Source: a virus (Duplodnaviria; Heunggongvirae; Uroviricota; Caudoviricetes). From it: 32,364 nt of DNA. Where the stretch lies: IMG/VR virus record IMGVR_UViG_3300023371_004649. The stretch is one strand, 5' to 3'. The position numbers and the translations under genes are program-made. Of this stretch, positions 797 through 10,898 are shown one piece after another. The notes under the pieces were generated by a model that saw only the letters and a list, made by a program, of their open reading frames with translations, was not told where the DNA came from and made no database searches. How positions within the stretch are numbered: position 1 is the first letter of the stretch; each line of letters starts with the position of its first letter.

Positions 797-1921
797 TTGT
801 TGTTTCTAATAATTGTCACCAAGATATTATTATTCCCATTTTTGGATTACAATATTTGTATGTTATACTCAATAATAATAGCTTTCCATTTGTTGAAGAA
901 ATACTTGGAATGTAAAAACCCCAAACTATTACTTGGCACGGGGATAGCATTATGCATTGCATTAGAATTTAAGCATTCTCTACCTGGAATAATAATTATA
1001 TTTTTAACGTTGTTCCTTCTTGTCCATTGTGTAAAAAATAAAACTTTAAAACATTTTTTTTACTACGCCATCGGAGGATTATTCCCAGCAATAATTTTAT
1101 TAATGATTGCATTAATAAATGGATATTTAGTAAATATGATAGACTATACCGTTTTTGGACTAGGAGAATTTGATGCACTTGGAAAAGAACAGAAAATACT
1201 CCCTCTATTTATTGCAACAGTTATTATCTTAGTATTGTTTTTAGTTAGTATTATAACAAAAGGAAAGATAAAAAAAAGAATTCCGTTATTTATTTTTATG
1301 GCCTCTATTTACGTCCTTTTAATATTAAAAGATGACAGATGTTCTATCTTTGCTCTAATTTATATCTTAACATTAATTGGACTAGAAGAAAATGATTTTA
1401 TAAAAAGTAATTTTGAAAAAGCTTTCAACCCAAGAAATGTTTGTTGCACAGTCTCCATTATTTTTTATTTGTTATTAATAATAGCATTATTCGCAATATC
1501 AGCAAAACAAATTGTAAATATAACCAACACAGAATTTGTTATAACCGATAAATATGAATGGATAGATAATAACAAAATATATAAGTCATCTCTTGATTTT
1601 GTTGAAGATATAGATGCTTATATAACATCCAATCCAGACAAAAAAATATTACCAATTTCAAGCTTCACAAAACTTTATTCGCTATCGAAGAATCAATCTT
1701 TTGGAGTTTTTGATTTGTTAATAGAAGGCAACGTTGGAAAAATAAATCATGAAAAAATGTATGATATAATTAACGAACAATATGACTTGGTAATTCTTGC
1801 AGAAATGCAATTACCGATGGAATATTCTAAGATATATAATTACGTAAAAAATAATTATGAATTGTATGAAAAAATCCCTATCTGTGACGGATATGGATAT
1901 GTATATAGAGTTAATAATTGA
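797..1921 (+). pseudogene. Multi-TM GT-C (ArnT/PMT-like) glycosyltransferase, probably 5'-truncated by IS1595
   Basis: Many hydrophobic helices, LDYN and ALEFKH motifs, soluble C-terminal domain. No RBS at TTG 797; the frame stays open back to 668 and reads protein-like (YQIFTHIISLTKDNIVKILLF) up to the IS. Confidence 0.55.
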
Positions 1922-1986
1922 ATATTGTTTTTAATAAAATATATAAGCCACAATAAAAATAAAAGGAATATACGGAGGATAAAAAT

Positions 1987-2247
1987 ATGTTGAACTGGCA
2001 CTATTGGCATCCCGAGCATCTGGATGGAAGCAGATTTATCGAAGTACAGGAATCTTATCTGTGTTTCAGGTACAAGATTTGTCGTATGAATGACAAGTGC
2101 CTATATGTCTGCTACACCACGCCTTCCGACCAGGGCAAGTTCCCCGTCCCCGACGTGGAAACTGGCAAAAAGAGGGCAGAAGAGCATCTAAAAACGATTC
2201 TCGAAGACCTTGCATCCGAGATTGCCAAAGTCCTGGCACTTAATTAA
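1987..2247 (+). CDS. Hypothetical protein, 86 aa
   Basis: GGAGG RBS, ATG start, own terminator; visibly GC-richer than its flanks. Confidence 0.8.
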   Translation: MLNWHYWHPEHLDGSRFIEVQESYLCFRYKICRMNDKCLYVCYTTPSDQGKFPVPDVETGKKRAEEHLKTILEDLASEIAKVLALN

Positions 2248-2271
2248 ATCTCCCTGCGGGGAGATTTTTTT
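2246..2271 (+). terminator. Intrinsic terminator
   Basis: AAATCTCCC-tgcg-GGGAGATTT followed by a T run. Confidence 0.85.
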
Positions 2272-2370
2272 CTTCAATATATTTTAATATTTACTTTTTG
2301 ACTAATATGTATTATAATAAATGTATAATAACTTAATTTTGAATTTTGAAAAGAAAGGATGAATGTAATA

Positions 2371-2928
2371 ATGTCTAATATTTGGGGAAAAACCCTTTTA
2401 GAAGCAAAAAGAGTTGGTAGCGCTATTTCTAAGTCTGCAAAGGAAGTTGGAGGAGCTATTGGCCAGGCTACTGCAAATGTAGCTGACCACACAAAGAAAA
2501 CTGCCAAGATTGCAATGCTAAAAGCAGAAATGGACCAAATGAGCACAAAACTAGGAAAAGCAGTATTTAACTACGGAATAACTGAAGAAAATGAAGAAGC
2601 TCTGGAAATCATGAAAGAAATGCTTAATAAAAAGTCCGAAATCGAAAAGTTAGAAAAGGAACTCGATAATTGTGACTGTAAGTGTGAGCATAACCATGAA
2701 TGTGGCCATGAAGGTCCTTGCGATTGCGAATGTGACTGTATCGACTGTGATGAAGAAGTAGAAATCGATGAAGAAAAGTGCGATTGTGAAAATTGCGGAG
2801 ATGATTGCGACTGCGAATGCCATGATGAAAAATCTGAATTTGCCACCAACGAAGAAAATGATGCTCAGATTCTTGAACAGACAGAAACCACTTGTATTTG
2901 CGACGACAATACCAAAACAGAAGAATAA
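2371..2928 (+). CDS. Coiled-coil protein with Cys/His/acidic metallothionein-like C-terminus
   Basis: RBS AAAGAAAGGA 2350-2359 favours ATG 2371. N-terminal helical region (KIAMLKAEMDQMSTKLGKAVF); 17 Cys mostly in CxC repeats in the C-terminal half. Confidence 0.8.
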   Translation: MSNIWGKTLLEAKRVGSAISKSAKEVGGAIGQATANVADHTKKTAKIAMLKAEMDQMSTKLGKAVFNYGITEENEEALEIMKEMLNKKSEIEKLEKELDNCDCKCEHNHECGHEGPCDCECDCIDCDEEVEIDEEKCDCENCGDDCDCECHDEKSEFATNEENDAQILEQTETTCICDDNTKTEE

Positions 2929-2945
2929 TAAAAAAGAAAAGAGCA

Positions 2946-2955
2946 CTCTTAAGAG
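2946..2955. repeat. Target-site duplication, left copy (CTCTTAAGAG)
   Basis: Identical to 9315..9324; abuts the left TIR. Confidence 0.95.
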
Positions 2956-2991
2956 CAATGTCATTAAGTTAAGCAACTGAAGGCAAAAATT

Positions 2992-3034
2992 AAAAGACCT
3001 ACCTATTGTTGAAAAATAATAGGGGGTCTTTTTT
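2992..3034 (+). terminator. Terminator just inside the left transposon end
   Basis: AAAAGACC/GGTCTTTT outer stem, CCTATT/AATAGG inner stem, T run; would block read-through from the flank. Confidence 0.7.
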
Positions 3035-3058
3035 ATTTTAATACTTATAAAAAATATA

Positions 3059-3088
3059 AAACCTATTCCCAATTACGAGAATAGGTTT
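3059..3088 (-). terminator. Terminator of the small hydrophobic ORF
   Basis: AAACCTATTC...GAATAGGTTT stem, followed by a U-rich tail on the minus strand. Confidence 0.7.
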
Positions 3089-3093
3089 GTAAA

Positions 3094-3270
3094 TTATTTT
3101 TTCAATAATTTACAAATTGCAGGGATGCCTATAAAAATTAAGCAAACCATCAAACCAGTGGGGTACTCTGTTGCTAAGTTTAATGTGACATCTATCCACA
3201 TTTTACAGTAACCTAACAAACATTCGCCTATAACCATAAGTAAACCCCAAAGATTTTGCAAAATTTGCAT
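3094..3270 (-). CDS. 58-aa hydrophobic protein, candidate type I toxin
   Basis: RBS AAGGAGGTG (3286-3278) 7 nt before ATG 3270; C-terminal hydrophobic helix GLMVCLIFIGIPAIC with a KLLKK tail; structured leader. Confidence 0.7.
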   Translation of the reverse strand: MQILQNLWGLLMVIGECLLGYCKMWIDVTLNLATEYPTGLMVCLIFIGIPAICKLLKK

Positions 3271-3380
3271 TAGCACTCACCTCCTTAATAATACTCCACT
3301 TAAAGAAGGTGTTCCCACTTTAAGTGGGCAATATAAGTTTATTTACGATTATATAAGAATATAAAAATACCTTGTTTGTC

Positions 3381-3410
3381 AGACTTTCCTATTCAGGGAA
3401 GTCTTTTATT
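3381..3410 (+). terminator. Plus-strand hairpin with T run, antisense to the small-ORF leader
   Basis: AGACTTTCCT-attc-AGGGAAGTCT followed by TTTATT. Confidence 0.55.
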
Positions 3411-3428
3411 GTGTGATTTTGCCACAAT

Positions 3429-3456
3429 TTGACATTTTAAAATAGATACATATACT
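3429..3456 (+). promoter_or_regulatory. Sigma-A promoter upstream of the wHTH gene
   Basis: TTGACA-16 bp-TATACT; inverted repeat ATTGTG-N9-CACAAT (3408-3428) abuts the -35. Confidence 0.55.
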
Positions 3457-3666
3457 ATAGATGCTTATTACGATTGTTGTAAAAATTATCTAACATAAAT
3501 AACTAAATAAGAGACATAAATCATTTATTTATAACAGTTTATTCTATATTAAGTATCTAAAAAGCTATATTTCATATCTAAAATTACTATAATACATTAA
3601 CTGTAAAAGTTTTCTTACATACTTATTATGAAGTATTTTATTTTCAATGTGTGGAGGTGAATTACA

Positions 3667-3930
3667 TTGGCAAATCCTAATGTTTTGACTAACGATAGTT
3701 TTAAGGTCTTATCGTGGTTGTATGAAAAAAGAGACAAAAATAATTTAATCAAAGTCACTCAACAGGAGTTGGCAGACGACATTGGGTTGAGCAGACCCAC
3801 AATAAACATCATTTTTGGAAAATTAAAAGACGCAGGTTATTTAATCCATGATGATAGCAAAGTTGGTCGTTATTATTTGACTCCAGATGCTATAAAAGTC
3901 GTTGATACTTTTAGGAAATGGAGCAAGTGA
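3667..3930 (+). CDS. Winged-HTH (Crp/MarR-type) DNA-binding protein
   Basis: GGAGGTGA RBS, TTG start; VTQQELADDIGLSRPTINIIFGKLKDAGYL helix-turn-helix plus wing (GRYYLT). Confidence 0.85.
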   Translation: MANPNVLTNDSFKVLSWLYEKRDKNNLIKVTQQELADDIGLSRPTINIIFGKLKDAGYLIHDDSKVGRYYLTPDAIKVVDTFRKWSK

Positions 3931-4055
3931 TAATGAAAGAAATTACTAAATTTTTTTGTTGGCAATATACCGCACAAGGTATAATCTCAACAGAAATTAT
4001 AACTTATAGGGTTAAATACCCTTTCAAATAAATTGATTTTTAGGAGGTTGTTGTC

Positions 4056-7000
4056 GTGATAAAAGAATTTAATTTAGATGCAATACAAACTGATAAGTAT
4101 AAAAAAACATTATCTAAAGCAATATCACATATAACATTTGTTAGTGGAGATACTGAAGAGAATGTTCGTAAAAATGTAGAATATGCTATTAGAATCGCAT
4201 TAAAACAAAGCAATATATATATATGATGAGTTTGATTTAATAGATATGTTTAAATCTGAAACAAAGGTAAGACTTAAAGACACATCTATTGGATTTATGG
4301 ATAGTGATTTCAAAAATATTGTTATCGAATATAAAAAATATGAGAGATTAGATAAAGAATCTGATAGAAATGAGGCACAGCAACAGATTAAGGATTATAT
4401 GGAGTCTGATGACTTAGCTAAATTCCCTATTCTTTATGGTTTTTTAACAGATGGAAAAACGTTTTACTCTTATAAAAAAGAAGGCTCTTCCTTCGAAGAA
4501 CTTAAAGAATTTTCTGGTTATTTAGATGAACATAAATTGGATTACTTCTTGCGTTGTCTTGTTAATTATGATAAGAAGGATATTACTCCTTTCAGCTTAA
4601 AAGAAGATTTCGCAATTATAAACAATAAAACTGATAAGACGACTACAAATCTGTTTTTAGAATTGCTTAATATCAAGAATGGTTCAAAGAATGATAGAAC
4701 TAAACTTTTGTTTTCTGAATGGGAAAAATTATTTAAGTTGTCAGAGGCAGATAACAGCAACAATGAAGAAGTTACTAAAAGAAGAAAGGCACTTAGTTCC
4801 TTGATAAGTAGAGATATTATTGATGCAAGTGATGAATACAATGTTATCTTTGCTATACATACTCTTTATTCTTTGATTATTAAGTTAATTGCTATAAAGG
4901 CTGCCAAAGAAAATAGTGAAACATACAATACTAATTTCTATGAAATCAGCAAATATGACAATGCTAAATTGTTGAAGTTTATTAAGAGTATTGAAACAGG
5001 CAACATATTTAAGCGTATGAATATCCTTAATATGATTGAAGGAGATTTCTTCTCTTGGTATATAGCAGAAGCATTAACAGATGAGTTTTATAATAATTTT
5101 AGAGATTTATGTTTTAAACTTTCCAAATATGAGACCTTCAGTGTTAAGTTATTAGACAAAACTCAGGACTTCTTTAGGGAATTATACGAATCTTGTGTTC
5201 CTGCTGAAATAAGACATTCATTTGGTGAGTTCTATACACCTTATTGGTTAGCAGATGGTGTTGTAATCGACTACATAAATAGAAAAAATATTAAAGATAT
5301 TTATAAGTCATTAGACCCCACCTGTGGTTCTGGTACATTTGTAATGGTAAATATGGATAAAGTTATTGATTTTATCAATAGAAATCATACTGAATTGACT
5401 GATAAGGAAAAGACTGAAATAATTTTATCTAATTGTTATGGTATAGATTTAAACCCTCTTGCTGTATTAAGTTCTAAAATTAACTATTTTATGAATATCG
5501 CAAGTGTTTATGATGGCACTTATCAAATAGAAATTCCTATTTACCTTGGAGATAGTTCATATATGCCTCAAACTGAAATACTTGATGGTGTAAAATGTAT
5601 TTCTTATGACTTTTTTACAGATGTTGAAGAAGGAAATGATTTTATCCATTTCTGTTTGCCTTTATCTTTAATAAATGATAAACACTTCATAACCTATATG
5701 GATGAATTAGAAGCAATAATCATTGGTAAAGAAGATGACAAAAAGAAATCTAAACAGGCAAAAGATTATTTAATTTCTAAAATAGAAAAAAGTTCCCTAA
5801 ACATAAAAGTTGAAAGAGAAATTGAAGATTTAATCAATAAATTGGTTGAATTAGAAAGCAAAAAACTTAACTCTATTTGGTTAAGAATTTTTGCTAACTA
5901 TTTAAAATCTTCTTCTCTTTGTGATATGGATTTAATTTCAGGTAATCCACCTTGGGTAGATTGGAAGAACTTGCCTGATAAATATAGTGAGAAATTAAAG
6001 ATTTCTTGTAAAAACACAGGTATTTTCTCAAATGATAAGAATGTTGGTGGTATTAGCCTCAATATTTGTGCTTTAATCGCTATGAAGTGTTGTGATAAAT
6101 ACCTCAAAGAAGATGGTGAATTATCTTTTCTTATGCCAGATGGAATCTTGTATAATAAATCTTTTGAAGGATTTAGAAAATTTGAAATCGATGGTAGAAA
6201 ATATTACTTCAAAAAGATAGTTGATTGGTCTAAGGCTGGAAAACCATTTGACCCTGTTGCTATCAATTTCTGTTGTTTTACTATTTCAAAAGATAAACAA
6301 GACTATACCAAAGGAATTCCTTTTGTTAGATATTCAGCTAAAAAGGGTGCTAAATTCTATGATACCCACGCTGTATTTGAAACAGAAAAGGACAAGTTAA
6401 ATGTGGAAGATATGTTCGCATATATGATAAACACAAAGAGCAATAATCCATTTACAATACTTGATGCTCCTATTCCTAATATTGATAAGATAGTTGGAGA
6501 GAAACAGTATCGTTTTAGAAAAGGCTTAGGGTTAAAAGCAGAAGTACATAAATTAGTTTATGCTAATGAATGTCCTACTGACAATACCTTGGCTTACTTC
6601 TACACCTTTGAAAAAGGCAATAAATATAAATCTGTTTCTAAAAACAAAGTGCTTTTAGAAAAGAAATATGTAAGACCTTTAATCGAAACTCCTTGCTTAA
6701 CATTCTATCAATTAGATTGGGATAATGAATATACTGTATTCCCTTATGAATGGGGTACAAAGACACCTATTCCTTTCGAAGAGTTAAAGAAGAAAGCTCC
6801 TCATTTGGCACAATATCTTTTAAGTAACAAAGAGATTTTGGATAATCAAAGCGAATACAATAAGAGAATCCAAAATACAAGTGAATTCTATGGAATTATA
6901 AGAACTGCTGATTATATGTTTAGAGACAATTTCGTTTGTATAAAAGATAACGGTCAATTAGTTGCTACACCTGTAAATAAAGTAAAAACTCATTGGGGAG

Positions 7001-7467
7001 AAGATGTTGTTCCTGTATTTGATGGGCATGTTAGTTATATTTCAGAAAAGTTAAATGATACTCCTATTTCTTCTGATGAAATGTATTTTATTTCTGGAAT
7101 ACTTAATTGTCCTTATGTCAAGAAGTTTGTTGAAGCATCTTCCAGTTCTCAAAGCATAGGTACAAAGTTTGATATAAACCTTCCACAGTATGATGATACA
7201 AATTCAAAGCATATTGAAATTGTAAAAGTTGTAAAGGAAGTAGTTAGTCTAATTAAAAAGAAAGACAATCTGCTGGAACAGATTGTCGCTGAAAATGAAG
7301 CTAATGATTATATAAAACAGAAAGACCTGTCAAATATTATTAAACAAAATAAGAAATCTGAAACAGGTAAAAAAGAATTTGATGATTTAATTTTGGTTTA
7401 CAACAATCAATGTTCTGAAGTATCTACATTGATAACAAAAATCCAAGACCTCTATATTTCAATTTAA
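4056..7467 (+). CDS. Fused restriction endonuclease / N6-adenine methyltransferase (type IIG-like), frameshifted at an (AT)6 tract
   Basis: RBS AGGAGG (4042-4047) and GTG 4056 open a 56-aa frame (…GDTEENVRKNVE…) ending at TGA 4224-4226. The other frame continues into the 1073-aa ORF with FMDS…VIEYK (PD-(D/E)xK-like), FYTP, DPTCGSGTF (motif I), GIDLNPLA, NPPW (motif IV) and a C-terminal TRD-like region. Confidence 0.85.
4213..4224 (+). repeat. (AT)6 simple sequence repeat at the frameshift
   Basis: agc a ATATATATATAT gat gag; n=7 or n=4 units restore the frame, n=6 does not. Confidence 0.9.
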
Positions 7468-7476
7468 AAATTAAAT

Positions 7477-7591
7477 AAAAAAATGAGAGTTGCCTGCTGG
7501 AACAAGCAACTCTCTGGATAAACAACATTTCAAGATTGACAATAAGTTTGGCTGGACACCTTACACGAATTGTTTCTTTTTATGCTGTTCA
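7477..7591 (-). ncRNA. ~115-nt outward-reading small RNA upstream of the transposase (RNA-OUT-like)
   Basis: Consensus promoter upstream; GAGAGTTGC(7485-7493)/GCAACTCTC(7506-7514) stem with a U tract only on the minus strand; no RBS-led ORF. Confidence 0.65.
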
Positions 7592-7597
7592 TTTTAT

Positions 7598-7626
7598 ATT
7601 ATACCATACTGTTGTAATTTTGTCAA
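7598..7626 (-). promoter_or_regulatory. Consensus sigma-A promoter with extended -10 (pOUT-like)
   Basis: Minus strand TTGACA-17 bp-TATAAT with TG at the extended -10 position. Confidence 0.85.
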
Positions 7627-7704
7627 CAAGTTTACAGCGTAATCTCAAGGAATAATTTAACTTTGTCAATTTTGAACAATTCTACGATAAGGAGAGTGTT
7701 CAAA

Positions 7705-9042
7705 ATGAAACACAATGAATATGTTTTAAATAATTTAATGTCTGTAATAGACACTATGTATAACAATAAAAATGATTTTGTTAAAAATCCAGATAAGGAT
7801 TTTACTCGTAATAGAAAATTAGATTTCCAACACACCATTATGCTTATTCTTAGTATGAATGGCAATACACTCAACAAGGAACTTTATGATTATTTTGGTA
7901 AAGACCCTCGTGCTATTGCTACTTCTTCTGCCTTTGTACAACAAAGGGATAAGATAGCTGATGGTGCTTTTGAGCATCTATTTCACGCTTTCAATAAAAG
8001 TATGATAGATTTTAAAACTTATTCTGGTTATAGATTATATGCTGTTGATGGTTCAGATATCAATATTGCCTACAATAAAGATAGTGATACTTATATTGAT
8101 TATACTCATAAGGACAAAAAAGAAGGAAGTGCTGCAGTAAATCAATTTCATCTTAATGCCATTTATGACTTAATGAATAAAGTTTATGTAGACGCTTCCT
8201 TACAACCAAGAAGCAAGTTAGATGAGCGTAGAGATTTTATTGAAATGCTTAAAAGAATGTCTTTACCTTCAAAAACTATTTTTATAGCAGACAGAGGTTA
8301 TCCTTCTTGGAATATGTTTGCTCATTTTAAATACAAGAACAATGCGGATTACCTAATTCGTGTAAGGAATGGCGAAAACAGAATTATTAAATCGTTACCA
8401 ATGACAGAATTTGATATTACAAAGAATCTAATTGTTTCTACAAATCAATATGATAGAGGCAAGGAGAATTATGTTATTGTTCAAACTCGTAAGGGAAAAC
8501 AAAACCGTATTTATACTGAAAAAGCAAGTAGTGCTGTTGTACAATGGGATTTTGCTGATAAAGAAACTTTGTCTATTCGTATTGTTCGCTTTAAGATAAC
8601 TGATGATACTTATGAAACTATTATCACTTCTCTTCCAAAAGATAAATTCCCATTAGAAGAAATAAAGAAGCTCTATGGTATGCGTTGGGGTATTGAAACT
8701 TCATTCAGAGAACTTAAATATGCTATTGGATTGACAAACCTTCATTGTAAAAGAGAAGATTTTGTAGTTCAAGAGATATTTGCTAAATTAACATTTTTTA
8801 ATTTTACTCACAGGATTGTTGAAATGATAGTTGTTGAGCAAGATGAAAATCGTAAATATACATATCAAGTCAATTTTACTATGGCAACTCGTATATGTGT
8901 TGATTTTTTCAAAGCATTGATAAGCAGTGCTGACCTTTATGAACTAATGACAAAGTATATAGTTCCAATAAGACCAGGTAGAAGCGATAAACGCAAAATG
9001 AAAACAAAAGCATTCGTTTCATTCGTATATAGAGTAGCTTAA
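7705..9042 (+). CDS. IS4-family DDE transposase, 445 aa
   Basis: RBS AAGGAGAG favours ATG 7705; AVDGS (D), IADRGY (D) and YGMRWGIETSFRELK, the IS4 Y-2-R-3-E-6-K signature. Confidence 0.95.
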   Translation: MKHNEYVLNNLMSVIDTMYNNKNDFVKNPDKDFTRNRKLDFQHTIMLILSMNGNTLNKELYDYFGKDPRAIATSSAFVQQRDKIADGAFEHLFHAFNKSMIDFKTYSGYRLYAVDGSDINIAYNKDSDTYIDYTHKDKKEGSAAVNQFHLNAIYDLMNKVYVDASLQPRSKLDERRDFIEMLKRMSLPSKTIFIADRGYPSWNMFAHFKYKNNADYLIRVRNGENRIIKSLPMTEFDITKNLIVSTNQYDRGKENYVIVQTRKGKQNRIYTEKASSAVVQWDFADKETLSIRIVRFKITDDTYETIITSLPKDKFPLEEIKKLYGMRWGIETSFRELKYAIGLTNLHCKREDFVVQEIFAKLTFFNFTHRIVEMIVVEQDENRKYTYQVNFTMATRICVDFFKALISSADLYELMTKYIVPIRPGRSDKRKMKTKAFVSFVYRVA

Positions 9043-9063
9043 TTTAATTACATCATATTATGG

Positions 9064-9101
9064 TTCAATTTACTCATTTTTTATAAAATGAGCGAATTGA
9101 A
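9064..9101 (+). terminator. Hairpin after the transposase
   Basis: TTCAATT..CTCATTTT / AAAATGAG..AATTGAA inverted repeat. Confidence 0.55.
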
Positions 9102-9314
9102 TTAGTTCAAGACGAAGTTAAATGCTTCGTCTATTGGTGCTGCCCCAAAATATTGATAATATAGAAAAATGTGATAAAAGACACCTAAATTCGCTGAAAA
9201 AATGTGAAAGTAGGTGTCTATATTTTTTATATCTCTTAACTTAATAGGTTTTATCCAAAATCAGCATAAGAAAAGGACCTGAAATTCAATCAGGTCCTTA
9301 ACTTAATACCATTG

Positions 9315-9324
9315 CTCTTAAGAG
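9315..9324. repeat. Target-site duplication, right copy (CTCTTAAGAG)
   Basis: Identical to 2946..2955; contains the stop codon of 9318..10025. Confidence 0.95.
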
Positions 9325-10025
9325 TGCTCTTCTTCTATTTCTGACAAAATTTCGAGAGTTTTAGTTTCTGAATTAAACCAAGTAGCATAAACTCCTTTAA
9401 CGGTTGTAGGATTCATGTCTTTGATGCGTTTAACTTCCTCTATGATATCTTCTTTAGAAGCATTTTCCCCAACAGAACTACTGCTTCCCCCACCAGATAC
9501 CATAGCAATATTTATAACGCCATACCCAGGAATCTCAATTTCCTCATAGCTTGCCTGTTTAAGAACCAACTTTTCGTCGTCACATTCGTCTTTAGCAATA
9601 TATCTGCTAAAACCATATAGCGATTCAGGCTCTTCATCTCCCATATAAAACACATCTCTGTATCCATCGGGTACTGCTTCCCCCAAAACGTCTTTGAGTA
9701 GTTTTTCGTACTCTTCGTTTCGACTAAAATTAAATCCACCCCAATTTTTGAAGATAGACAAGTACCCACCAGGGATTTCAGACAATTTCTTTTGCCAAAT
9801 AATATCTTTGCCCTTTGTAACAGCAAGAATACAACACTCTACATCGTATTCAATGTTATTAGTAATGACATTGTCATCTTCATCTCTGACAAGTCTGTAG
9901 TCATAGGAATAACCACATTCCATACAAAATTGAGTGTCTTCTCCTGTGCGGCAATTTAATTCCGCATAAAGAGCTCCCTCACTTTTACAGTAAGGACATG
10001 TTTCGTAACTTATACTTGAACTCAT
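9318..10025 (-). CDS. Hypothetical protein with N-terminal zinc ribbon
   Basis: CPYC...CMEC; RBS GGGAGG. Confidence 0.8.
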   Translation of the reverse strand: MSSSISYETCPYCKSEGALYAELNCRTGEDTQFCMECGYSYDYRLVRDEDDNVITNNIEYDVECCILAVTKGKDIIWQKKLSEIPGGYLSIFKNWGGFNFSRNEEYEKLLKDVLGEAVPDGYRDVFYMGDEEPESLYGFSRYIAKDECDDEKLVLKQASYEEIEIPGYGVINIAMVSGGGSSSSVGENASKEDIIEEVKRIKDMNPTTVKGVYATWFNSETKTLEILSEIEEEHS

Positions 10026-10106
10026 AATTTCCCTCCCATTTTTTTGTTACTTATTTTATTATATAAAAATTAACAATTAAAAATTTTAAAAAACAATAAA
10101 AACCTA

Positions 10107-10135
10107 TTGACTTTTATTTGTAAATATGTTATAAT
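10107..10135 (+). promoter_or_regulatory. Sigma-A promoter, extended -10
   Basis: TTGACT-17 bp-TATAAT with TG; AAATATGTTATAAT motif. Confidence 0.85.
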
Positions 10136-10140
10136 ATAAG

Positions 10141-10224
10141 TGTAAGATAGATGTTCTGTGAACGTCCTTTCTTTACTTGTGTGTGATAAAGAGCAGCGGT
10201 TGTACCATTGCTCTTTATTTTTTT
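10141..10224 (+). ncRNA. Standalone ~80-nt small RNA
   Basis: Lies between the strong promoter and terminator ATAAAGAGCA(10186-10195)/TGCTCTTTAT(10209-10218)+T6; the only ORF is 11 codons with no RBS. Confidence 0.65.
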
Positions 10225-10232
10225 GCAAAACA

Positions 10233-10260
10233 AAAAGTCGTTACACATGTAACGACTTTT
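10233..10260 (-). terminator. Terminator
   Basis: AAAAGTCGTTACA-ca-TGTAACGACTTTT. Confidence 0.8.
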
Positions 10261-10728
10261 TTATTTAACGCTTACAATGAAAGTTAATATATCATAATAA
10301 TCCCCAGAACCTTTAGAGGCAACCCTAAAATATAAATCCTGAGTAACTTCACCGTTATACTTTTCTCCCGAATTTACGGCCAAAATGATAGTATCTAAAT
10401 CTACCAAATATTTATTATTTGTTCCTATTTCATAAAAAATATAATTATTTTCTTCATTAATTTTATCAGCTCTCCAACCGCCATTATAGTTTTTACTAGA
10501 AAGAGAAATCTTTAAAACTTTATTATCAGAAATTAATACATCTTGAGCCGAAATATTAGTTATATACTCTTTAGATTCATCAAACGAAAACCCAGGAGGA
10601 ATTACAATAATGAAAGCCTCGTTTGCACCATATCTTATCGCCTCTTTATTTTCAGCAAATACGTCTAATGTAAAAAACGTATTAAGAATTAATACACATA
10701 AAATAATACTGGATAATAAGCGTTTCAT
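10261..10728 (-). CDS. Secreted protein, probable beta-sandwich fold
   Basis: Sec signal peptide (MKRLL…VFA); C-terminal GDYYDILTFIVSV strand typical of fimbrial/WxL-like folds. Confidence 0.7.
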   Translation of the reverse strand: MKRLLSSIILCVLILNTFFTLDVFAENKEAIRYGANEAFIIVIPPGFSFDESKEYITNISAQDVLISDNKVLKISLSSKNYNGGWRADKINEENNYIFYEIGTNNKYLVDLDTIILAVNSGEKYNGEVTQDLYFRVASKGSGDYYDILTFIVSVK

Positions 10729-10898
10729 GTCGTCAACTCCTTCCTAATTTAATTTATTATATCTCTTGTTCCTATTATACTGAAAAGAGCTCTAAAAATA
10801 CATGATAATTCGCTCTAAGACAAATAATATAAGTGTTTGACCCCCTCCTATAAGACAAAAAATAAAAAGTCTGGCTCATTTAAGAACCAGACTTTAAA

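Follow-up and report, generated by a model that had tools for sequence, protein, structure and literature searches.

The means by which restriction–modification (R-M) systems pass from one genome to another are a long-standing matter of debate, in which the evidence is mostly indirect, such as linkage to mobile genes or odd flanking repeats. A 32,364-nucleotide stretch of DNA from a virus assigned to the Caudoviricetes (IMG/VR record IMGVR_UViG_3300023371_004649; hereafter the window) poses the question in concrete form: a type IIG R-M gene and a single transposase gene lie there inside one pair of inverted repeats, raising the possibility that the whole segment travels together. The best explanation of our data, to which we give a probability of roughly 0.88, is that positions 2956-9314 form an autonomous, passenger-carrying IS4-family transposon that moves as one unit. 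A preliminary description of the locus had already proposed that one transposase mobilises the entire 6.4-kb R-M-bearing unit, a proposal strengthened here by six independent sister elements with the same ends and with target-site duplications.

Ends, transposase and target sites

The element is bracketed by identical direct copies of the 10-bp sequence CTCTTAAGAG (2946-2955 and 9315-9324), its target-site duplication. Immediately inside these lie 18-bp terminal inverted repeats, CAATGTCATTAAGTTAAG on the left (2956-2973, plus strand), an 18-mer that terminates dozens of related elements, and CAATGGTATTAAGTTAAG on the right (9297-9314, minus strand), which was recovered by sequence reading, repeat search and pattern search; the two match at 16 of 18 positions. 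An inverted-repeat search ranked this terminal pair as the longest in the region, at 51 nt and 84% complementarity, the repeat extending this far because the outer flanks are themselves palindromic. When the 32-kb window was scanned with a degenerate pattern for the ends, two matches without mismatch were found, one at each end of the element, and no match with up to three mismatches was found within 300 nt upstream of the transposase gene. The element measures 6,359 bp, of which 4.7 kb is passenger DNA. The core of the repeat, ATTAAGTTAAG, recurs at 9235-9252 (minus strand), 62 bp in from the right end and with no equivalent at the left; this additional copy stands at the same distance in the related loci L003, L004, L092 and L094, is visible in L006 and L096, and may be an extra transposase-binding site. 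Since two independent assemblies from different samples (L001 and L011) cross both junctions and a contig of run X7 reads through the left junction without mismatch, an assembly artefact can be excluded. The inverted repeats, exact 10-bp duplication and single transposase with a YREK signature named in the preliminary description can all be read directly from the sequence, and the passengers on its list (a small open reading frame (ORF), a winged-helix gene, a type IIG R-M gene and a promoter-plus-terminator unit) likewise all occur there.

The transposase gene (7705-9042, plus strand) is intact and preceded by a good ribosome-binding site, and it encodes the 445-amino-acid protein in one ORF without frameshift, as is usual in the IS4 family. 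The protein matches PF01609 (E = 1e-22; 81 bits against a cut-off of 23) and the NCBIfam model NF033592, ‘IS4 family transposase’ (150.1 bits; cut-off 115). An alignment was used to confirm that D115, D196 and E331, together with the signature Y324-x2-R327-x3-E331-x6-K338, are invariant across 36 relatives. The spacings between the three acidic residues (81 and 135) fall within the D(60-110)D(100-150)E definition of the IS4 family, the Y-(2)-R-(3)-E-(6)-K signature is present in full, and the duplications are close to the 10 bp characteristic of the family (10 bp in the window, 9-10 bp in the six sisters); definitions of spacing and YREK signature follow PMC2266710, and those of the subgroup ends its Table 1. 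Within the family, the IS4 subgroup has ends of the form -AATR--------WTW----, duplications of 10-13 bp and a typical size of 1400-1650 bp (PMC2266710). With AATG at positions 2-5 and TTA at positions 14-16, CAATGTCATTAAGTTAAG carries this end signature; the size is matched by compact relatives of the element and not by the cargo form found in the window. The IS231 signature, CAT-------AA--TAA---, is missed at its third base, which is A and not T, while its AA and TAA positions match. An earlier assignment of the element as ‘IS4/IS231-type’ is thus right for the IS4 family and wrong for the IS231 subgroup, as the ends carry the signature of the IS4 subgroup. Among annotated records, the nearest named transposase is that of IS1675 from Lactococcus, with ~40% identity over 98% of the protein.

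Target sites were reconstructed by joining the flanks after removal of one copy of the duplication. The rebuilt targets consist of a hairpin followed by a T-run, with a mean folding z-score of -3.7 relative to shuffled sequences, and the loop of the hairpin falls within the duplicated 10 bp at 18 of 21 sites, and in seven out of seven where cargo-bearing elements are concerned. In the window, the joined flanks rebuild a perfect terminator hairpin, the common terminator of two convergent genes (2359-2928 and 9318-10025). This preference for hairpin loops is common to the whole family. By analogy with studied members of the IS4 family, the single DDE/YREK transposase would recognise both 18-bp ends and move the whole unit by cut-and-paste, and integration with a 10-bp stagger into the loop of the terminator hairpin would have left the duplication of CTCTTAAGAG. 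Each end of the element also has a terminator of its own that faces inwards: a long hairpin with a T-run, predicted by RNAfold, just inside the left end (2992-3040, plus strand), with counterparts in 8/9 related left ends, those of every cargo-bearing element among them, and a second one abutting the right inverted repeat (9273-9299, minus strand), which is present in six of seven sister elements. These terminators may replace the host terminator that the insertion split and shield the element from read-through.

A comparison of eight aligned transposase leaders revealed a further conserved arrangement. An outward-facing promoter, TTGACA-17-TGnTATAAT (7598-7626, minus strand), matches the consensus at 12/12 positions; its -35 and -10 boxes are kept in most of the eight leaders and a terminator hairpin is kept in all of them. 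The minus-strand unit of promoter and terminator spans 7485-7626. What had earlier been called a small RNA therefore corresponds to a conserved promoter-to-terminator unit of ~100 nt; Rfam, searched at E-values up to 1, has no family for the leader RNA. Closer to the transposase gene, an invariant box, TTTGTCAATTTTGAACAA, and its inverted partner, TGTTCAAAAT (7662-7706, plus strand), are able to form a stem that spans the ribosome-binding site and start codon, which suggests translational occlusion of the transposase. The outward promoter and the start-codon stem would then both act as brakes on transposition. IS10 has a strong outward promoter (pOUT, giving RNA-OUT) and is subject to fold-back inhibition of transposase translation. 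The window element resembles IS10 in belonging to the IS4 family, in the strong outward promoter in its transposase leader and in a stem able to cover the start codon; it differs in that the outward promoter lies ~80-110 nt upstream of the start codon and in having no sequence similarity to IS10. When the left ends of compact relatives were aligned to the leader of the cargo-bearing clade, no usable homology was found.

Sister elements and exchangeable cassettes

Because a metagenome scan with the transposase gave only relatives of 42-47% identity, we sampled the close clade by looking up exact matches to the nearest transposases, which share 59-71% identity with that of the window. This yielded six sister elements (L004, L006, L092, L094, L096 and L097), all with the same 18-bp ends and each inserted at a site unrelated to the others, where a separate 9- or 10-bp duplication brackets it; an eighth locus, L003, ends 317 nt upstream of the transposase gene and was left out of the counts. 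Thus, a search for the same pair of inverted repeats around other cargos and at other loci, which the preliminary description had put forward as a check, found them in six elements at different sites. With the window counted, seven of seven assessable close relatives (transposases 59-77% identical) have the ends, the duplication and a winged-helix gene, and the seven are 5.6-8.6 kb long. The more distant metagenome relatives are mostly elements of 1.55-1.70 kb with the same ends.

The genes that follow the winged-helix gene vary from element to element. In the window this place is taken by a single-chain type IIG enzyme; in L004 by a type IIG R-M subunit with a type II specificity subunit; in L006 and its counterpart L008 by an EcoRI-like methyltransferase with a GmrSD_N/HNH nuclease; in L092 and L096 by another type IIG enzyme (PDLC03616) with specificity subunits; in L094 by a type IIG enzyme to which a specificity domain is fused; and in L097 by no more than a weak, oppositely oriented methyltransferase-like gene. 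Clear R-M cargo is therefore present in 6/7 elements and differs between them, five of the six sisters carrying cargo clearly of this kind and different from the window's. In L006, L092, L094 and L096 the regulators are 67-79% and the transposases 69-77% identical while the R-M genes are of three types, which implies that the regulator stays with the backbone and that the R-M genes are swapped. Across the sister elements the winged-helix gene and the transposase diverge together, their pairwise identities being correlated (r = 0.89, from non-independent pairs), and the R-M genes behind the former are exchanged. L092 also has a gene for a 533-amino-acid RRXRR/HNH nuclease between its left end and its winged-helix gene (L092:3285-4886), which points to a second variable slot.

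The window's R-M gene is read in two pieces. The main ORF (4246-7467, plus strand; 1073 amino acids) matches the PADLOC profile REase_MTase_IIG (PDLC03630) with E = 3e-133 over positions 58-1056 of 1100, and its Pfam matches are Eco57I and, weakly, MmeI_N and MmeI_Mtase. As in type IIG enzymes, the profile match extends over the parts for nuclease, methyltransferase and recognition within a single chain, and the motifs D-X8-E-X-K (DSDFKNIVIEYK) at residue 19, DPTCGSG at 357 and NPPW at 567 are intact; a search of Protein Data Bank sequences with the R-M protein gave no match. The gene does not form the uninterrupted frame of a type IIG gene, as its first 56 codons (4056-4226, plus strand) lie in another frame. 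This detached piece aligns to the N-termini of the homologues P0242-P0248, and an alignment with full-length relatives of 1134-1154 amino acids passes without a gap from the 56-codon ORF into the 1073-amino-acid ORF. The gapless alignment, the start of the profile match at position 58 and the location of the break in an (AT)6 tract (4213-4224, plus strand) together identify a single gene with a frameshift. Lesions are found in other cassettes too. The R-M gene of L134 (see below) is also cut off at its N-terminus, by a different lesion and without an AT tract; the R-M enzyme of L094 is split near A-runs; and a comparison of L006:6240-6440 with L008:2011-2210 in the L006 element, which is represented in four samples, showed that its GmrSD_N/HNH nuclease gene is frameshifted in three of them (AA; L006, L007 and L009) and intact in one (AAA). 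A further candidate, a G-run frameshift in the specificity gene of L096, was rejected, the ORFs overlapping by ATGA and the G-run resembling a ribosome-binding site.

In the window the R-M gene is part of a cassette (3416-7495, plus strand) whose limits are indicated by homology to L134, and which consists of a promoter, the winged-helix gene, the R-M gene and a terminator. At its head, where homology to L134 begins, is a promoter-like site, TTGACA-16-TATACT (3429-3456, plus strand; 11/12 consensus positions), followed by an operator-like palindrome (TGTAAAA...TTCTTACA; 3601-3620, plus strand) upstream of the ribosome-binding site of the winged-helix gene (3667-3930, plus strand). A hairpin terminator (7485-7514), whose stem the homology to L134 reaches, closes the cassette and, on the minus strand, also ends the outward RNA; its position is kept in eight aligned elements whose stem sequences differ. 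The 87-amino-acid winged-helix protein matches the Pfam families HTH_Crp_2, HTH_24 and MarR_2, and its AlphaFold 2 model (predicted local distance difference test score 91.5) resembles the DNA-binding domains of MarR, ArsR, IclR and Crp-type proteins and has no sensor domain. In all seven long elements the gene sits between the left end and the transposase gene and encodes 87-88 amino acids (67 as called in L096), and the proteins of the sister elements are 33-79% identical to one another. Within a collection of 5.8 billion proteins the family comprises 151 clusters at E < 1e-5, nearly all of them unnamed metagenome proteins; PADLOC and NCBIfam hold no family for the winged-helix protein, for the 56-amino-acid piece or for the small ORF described below. 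In most of ten cassettes, the stretch from the -10 box to the ribosome-binding site contains a TGTnAAA-N-TTTnACA motif at the matching place.

This arrangement recalls that of C proteins, small regulators of the Xre-type helix-turn-helix class that head R-M operons, act at a palindrome near their own promoter and time R-M expression after transfer. As in those systems, a small DNA-binding protein heads the R-M operon and a palindromic site lies near its own promoter. The window's regulator is distinct in being a MarR/ArsR/Crp-like winged helix without a PADLOC match; where a C protein would have an Xre-type helix-turn-helix and a C-box, it has a winged helix and a palindrome that is not a known C-box. 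Judging from this organisation, the winged-helix protein is most likely an autoregulating repressor or controller of the cassette that acts at the palindrome downstream of the promoter, and would be functionally C-protein-like while standing outside the C-protein family.

Winged-helix cassettes are also met in other settings. A stand-alone copy of the window's cassette lies at L134:2997-7089, with 87% nucleotide identity over 4103 nt. P0205, a protein 48% identical to the window's winged-helix protein, heads a cassette of Dam-like methyltransferase and GmrSD genes that follows an IS4-type left end at at least five different flanks (L124, L126-L133), a distribution that speaks for repeated transposition of close relatives. 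L125:1-9563 holds a cassette of winged-helix, Dam-like methyltransferase, 133-amino-acid protein and GmrSD genes that is followed by TnsB, TniB and TniQ genes and preceded by an end of Tn7-like appearance, which starts with TGT and has three CAAGTCTAATTGCAC-like sites. It is 98.5% identical to L124 over the 952 nt available (the regulator gene with the beginning of the methyltransferase gene), suggesting that a cassette may have been exchanged between an IS4-type and a Tn7-like transposon. In L114-L123 (for example L115:963-5323), a gene for a 97-amino-acid member of the winged-helix family (P0190) overlaps with the beginning of a gene for a BrxL-like ATPase, downstream of which come genes for proteins of 360 and 533 amino acids without family assignment; these loci have no IS4 ends, and their upstream promoter region resembles that of the L124 cassette. 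This BrxL-like unit is a candidate defence cassette.

Competing explanations for mobility, frameshift and regulator

Might mobility be confined to a short insertion sequence beside the transposase gene, the repeat at 2956 being a relic of another copy and the cassette merely neighbouring DNA? Compact 1.6-kb relatives are the commonest form, and the cassette does occur without a transposon in L134. An exact 10-bp duplication nevertheless brackets the entire 6.36 kb and rebuilds one hairpin, end-like sequence is missing upstream of the transposase gene, six more long elements are bracketed by separate duplications elsewhere, at sites unrelated to this one, and left ends with the same winged-helix gene are found at no fewer than five flanks; this explanation is largely refuted and retains very little probability. 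We consider it rather unlikely that the element inserted once as a unit and is now an immobile fossil. The transposase gene has an unbroken frame in which no catalytic residue is missing, and the duplication is still perfect, to be set against the single locus seen in 18 contigs from several samples, the decaying cargo gene and the two mismatches between the ends; as the same left/right GT/TC difference is found in L004 and L092, the last of these is a feature of the family and not a sign of decay. Several observations do count against an autonomous transposon that moves its cassette as one unit. All 18 contigs that encode the exact transposase show the same occupied locus, with no empty site and no second copy among them, so that current activity is not established. 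The winged-helix gene is not exclusive to the IS4 backbone, being found in the BrxL-like loci L114-L123, in the Tn7-like L125 and in L134, where the cassette lies between unrelated genes with neither inverted repeats nor a transposase. One of the seven long elements, L097, has no clear R-M system; the correlation between winged-helix and transposase pairwise identities (r = 0.89) is drawn from pairs that are non-independent; and the roles given here to the end terminators, the regulator's operator, the outward RNA and the start-codon stem are ones that we infer. A look-up of the right-flank protein likewise returned only the occupied locus and no empty allele, and contigs of four further runs covering 1500-10800 contained no joint of 2955 to 9315, an absence that in contigs proves nothing; they consisted of low-depth fragments of the same element, with spurious short AT-rich joints. 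The preliminary description had looked to an empty allele or a second location as the mark of a mobile element: neither was seen for the exact element, and it is the close relatives that are found at different sites.

The frameshift and the regulator each allow a different reading as well. The preliminary description had called the R-M system switchable, which would make the (AT)6 frameshift a reversible phase-variation switch and the transposon a vehicle for an ON/OFF R-M system. The break does fall exactly within a dinucleotide repeat, where the gain of one AT unit or the loss of two would restore a frame whose product aligns over its entire length with full-length relatives; the catalytic D-X8-E-X-K motif, motif I and motif IV are intact downstream, and the enzyme of L094 is split at A-runs. 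A switch is possible but doubtful, however, given that six repeat units are short for efficient slippage, that the OFF length is identical in all assemblies, that no tract-length variant appears in the contigs of the four further runs (although contigs cannot show minor variants), that the 87%-identical L134 copy is broken elsewhere and has no AT tract, and that the L006 nuclease gene is broken by loss of one nucleotide in a run of only three A. The frameshift itself is real, but it stands alongside unrelated nuclease lesions in L134, L094 and L006, L007 and L009; since the gene that bears the nuclease was thus broken four times independently, recurrent loss of restriction is favoured. Recurrent inactivation, possibly with retention of the methyltransferase, is the reading favoured by the sequences over a reversible switch, and the window's R-M gene is most likely restriction-dead, either decaying or kept as a methyltransferase. 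As for the winged-helix protein, it could instead serve transposition, through end binding, target choice or repression of the transposase, and not R-M control. Such a role would fit its co-divergence with the transposase while R-M genes change, and its position in L097 directly before the transposase gene with no R-M gene between. We judge it quite improbable, as homologues with similar upstream regions head cassettes without this transposase (L134, L114-L123 and L125), as the gene usually precedes the R-M gene by 10-30 nt and shares its strand, and as compact relatives without a winged-helix gene enter the same kind of hairpin. Control of the cassette by the winged-helix protein remains our preferred reading.

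Known systems, host replicons and minor features

In the IS231 subgroup, passenger genes lie between the left end and the transposase gene, an arrangement that by 2008 had not been seen in other IS4 subgroups (PMC2266710). The window element is like IS231-subgroup elements and MIC231 of the Bacillus cereus group in its single YREK transposase, its ~10-bp duplication and this passenger position; it is unlike them in that its ends start with CAA and not CAT, that its hosts are uncultured gut replicons and not Bacillus, and that the cargo of its family is a regulator-led R-M cassette exchanged between members. No report of an R-M passenger in IS231 was found among open-access papers and preprints, the literature covered in our searches. 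IS1675, an IS4-family element of Lactococcus plasmids, has the closest named transposase and is yet only distantly related. A mobile form of R-M system has been proposed for R-M genes that stand between inverted repeats, in some cases with short target duplications (Furuta, Abe and Kobayashi 2010; PMC2853133). Those units are single cases without an identified active transposase (PMC2853133), whereas the unit in the window is autonomous, belongs to a defined insertion-sequence family and recurs with different R-M types. Tn7-like transposons, in which defence systems including R-M dominate the cargo (Benler et al. 2021; PMC8649781), share with it the defence cargo, and a sister cassette is actually found inside the Tn7-like element L125; they differ in using TnsB, TniB and TniQ, in their much larger size and in their target choice.

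Passenger-carrying IS4 elements are therefore known, while a group that exchanges R-M genes and targets hairpins was previously undescribed in the literature searched. No published description was found there of an IS4 clade with regulator-led, exchangeable R-M cassettes, or of one with hairpin-loop targeting and replacement terminators, in keeping with the statement in the preliminary description that the combination was not known as a described element. A broader proposal, for which the case seems to us evenly balanced, is that this IS4 clade is specialised as a carrier of exchangeable, regulator-led defence cassettes: it would home to the loops of terminator hairpins, bring replacement terminators that make insertion almost harmless, shuttle R-M systems between large phage-like or conjugative gut replicons, and share cassettes with Tn7-like elements. 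If this were true, R-M systems would gain a dedicated autonomous transposon vehicle. The element described here is in any case compact, with one transposase and defined ends, and its family is met repeatedly with different R-M types in the same slot, which makes R-M mobility and exchange directly testable. Landing at the apex of a hairpin, combined with replacement terminators, would if confirmed be relevant to research on target choice and to the building of insertion tools. That the nuclease was lost repeatedly and independently suggests that methyltransferase, and not restriction, is what the carriers (possibly large gut phages) retain, which bears on conflict between phage and host and between phages.

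The genes around the window's element are mostly orphans, together with Thg1, NadR-type, HAD_SAK_2 and DegV genes. The neighbours of the sister elements are genes for primase, Clp protease, CCA-adding enzyme, RtcB, RNA ligase and an intein-bearing NrdD, or conjugation genes. A named phage collection contained no close relative of either the right flank or the transposase, so that the phage nature of the host replicon is not confirmed.

Among the distant relatives, a scan of genome contigs with the transposase gave one match, the compact L002, without a recognisable duplication, and a scan of IMG/VR gave only relatives of 38-45% identity and one short fragment of 56%. Two apparent long elements obtained with a relaxed pattern (L029 and L032) were rejected as pairing artefacts, compact ends being present there. 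Three relatives depart from the compact form in other ways. A 2.5-kb relative (L012:2150-4633), whose transposase is 46% identical to the window's and for which a target duplication was not found, encodes a 266-amino-acid protein with a PemK/MazF-like toxin domain between its left end and its transposase gene. L059, from the 42-47% group, carries a 494-amino-acid gene without family assignment. A compact relative at L052:40-3879 is split by an IS66-family transposase gene, a nested insertion in spite of which its 10-bp duplication in a hairpin is still present.

Outside the cassette, near the left end, the window's element carries a small hydrophobic ORF (3094-3276, minus strand) of 58-60 amino acids, with two predicted membrane helices and a lysine tail (grand average of hydropathicity 1.16), its own ribosome-binding site and its own terminator (3059-3088, minus strand). 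It has no Pfam match and no homologue in any sister element; the addiction role raised in the preliminary description is conceivable but unsupported. The window lacks a different small protein, of 62-66 amino acids, that is encoded in L004 (2810-2998), L094 (3918-4118, minus strand) and L096 (4073-4273, minus strand), with 48-80% identity among copies; this protein has a membrane helix at its N-terminus and the motif HSYDTTFCRD. Its gene lies just upstream of the winged-helix gene in L094 and L096, while L004 has four small genes from its left end to its winged-helix gene, of which this is the first.

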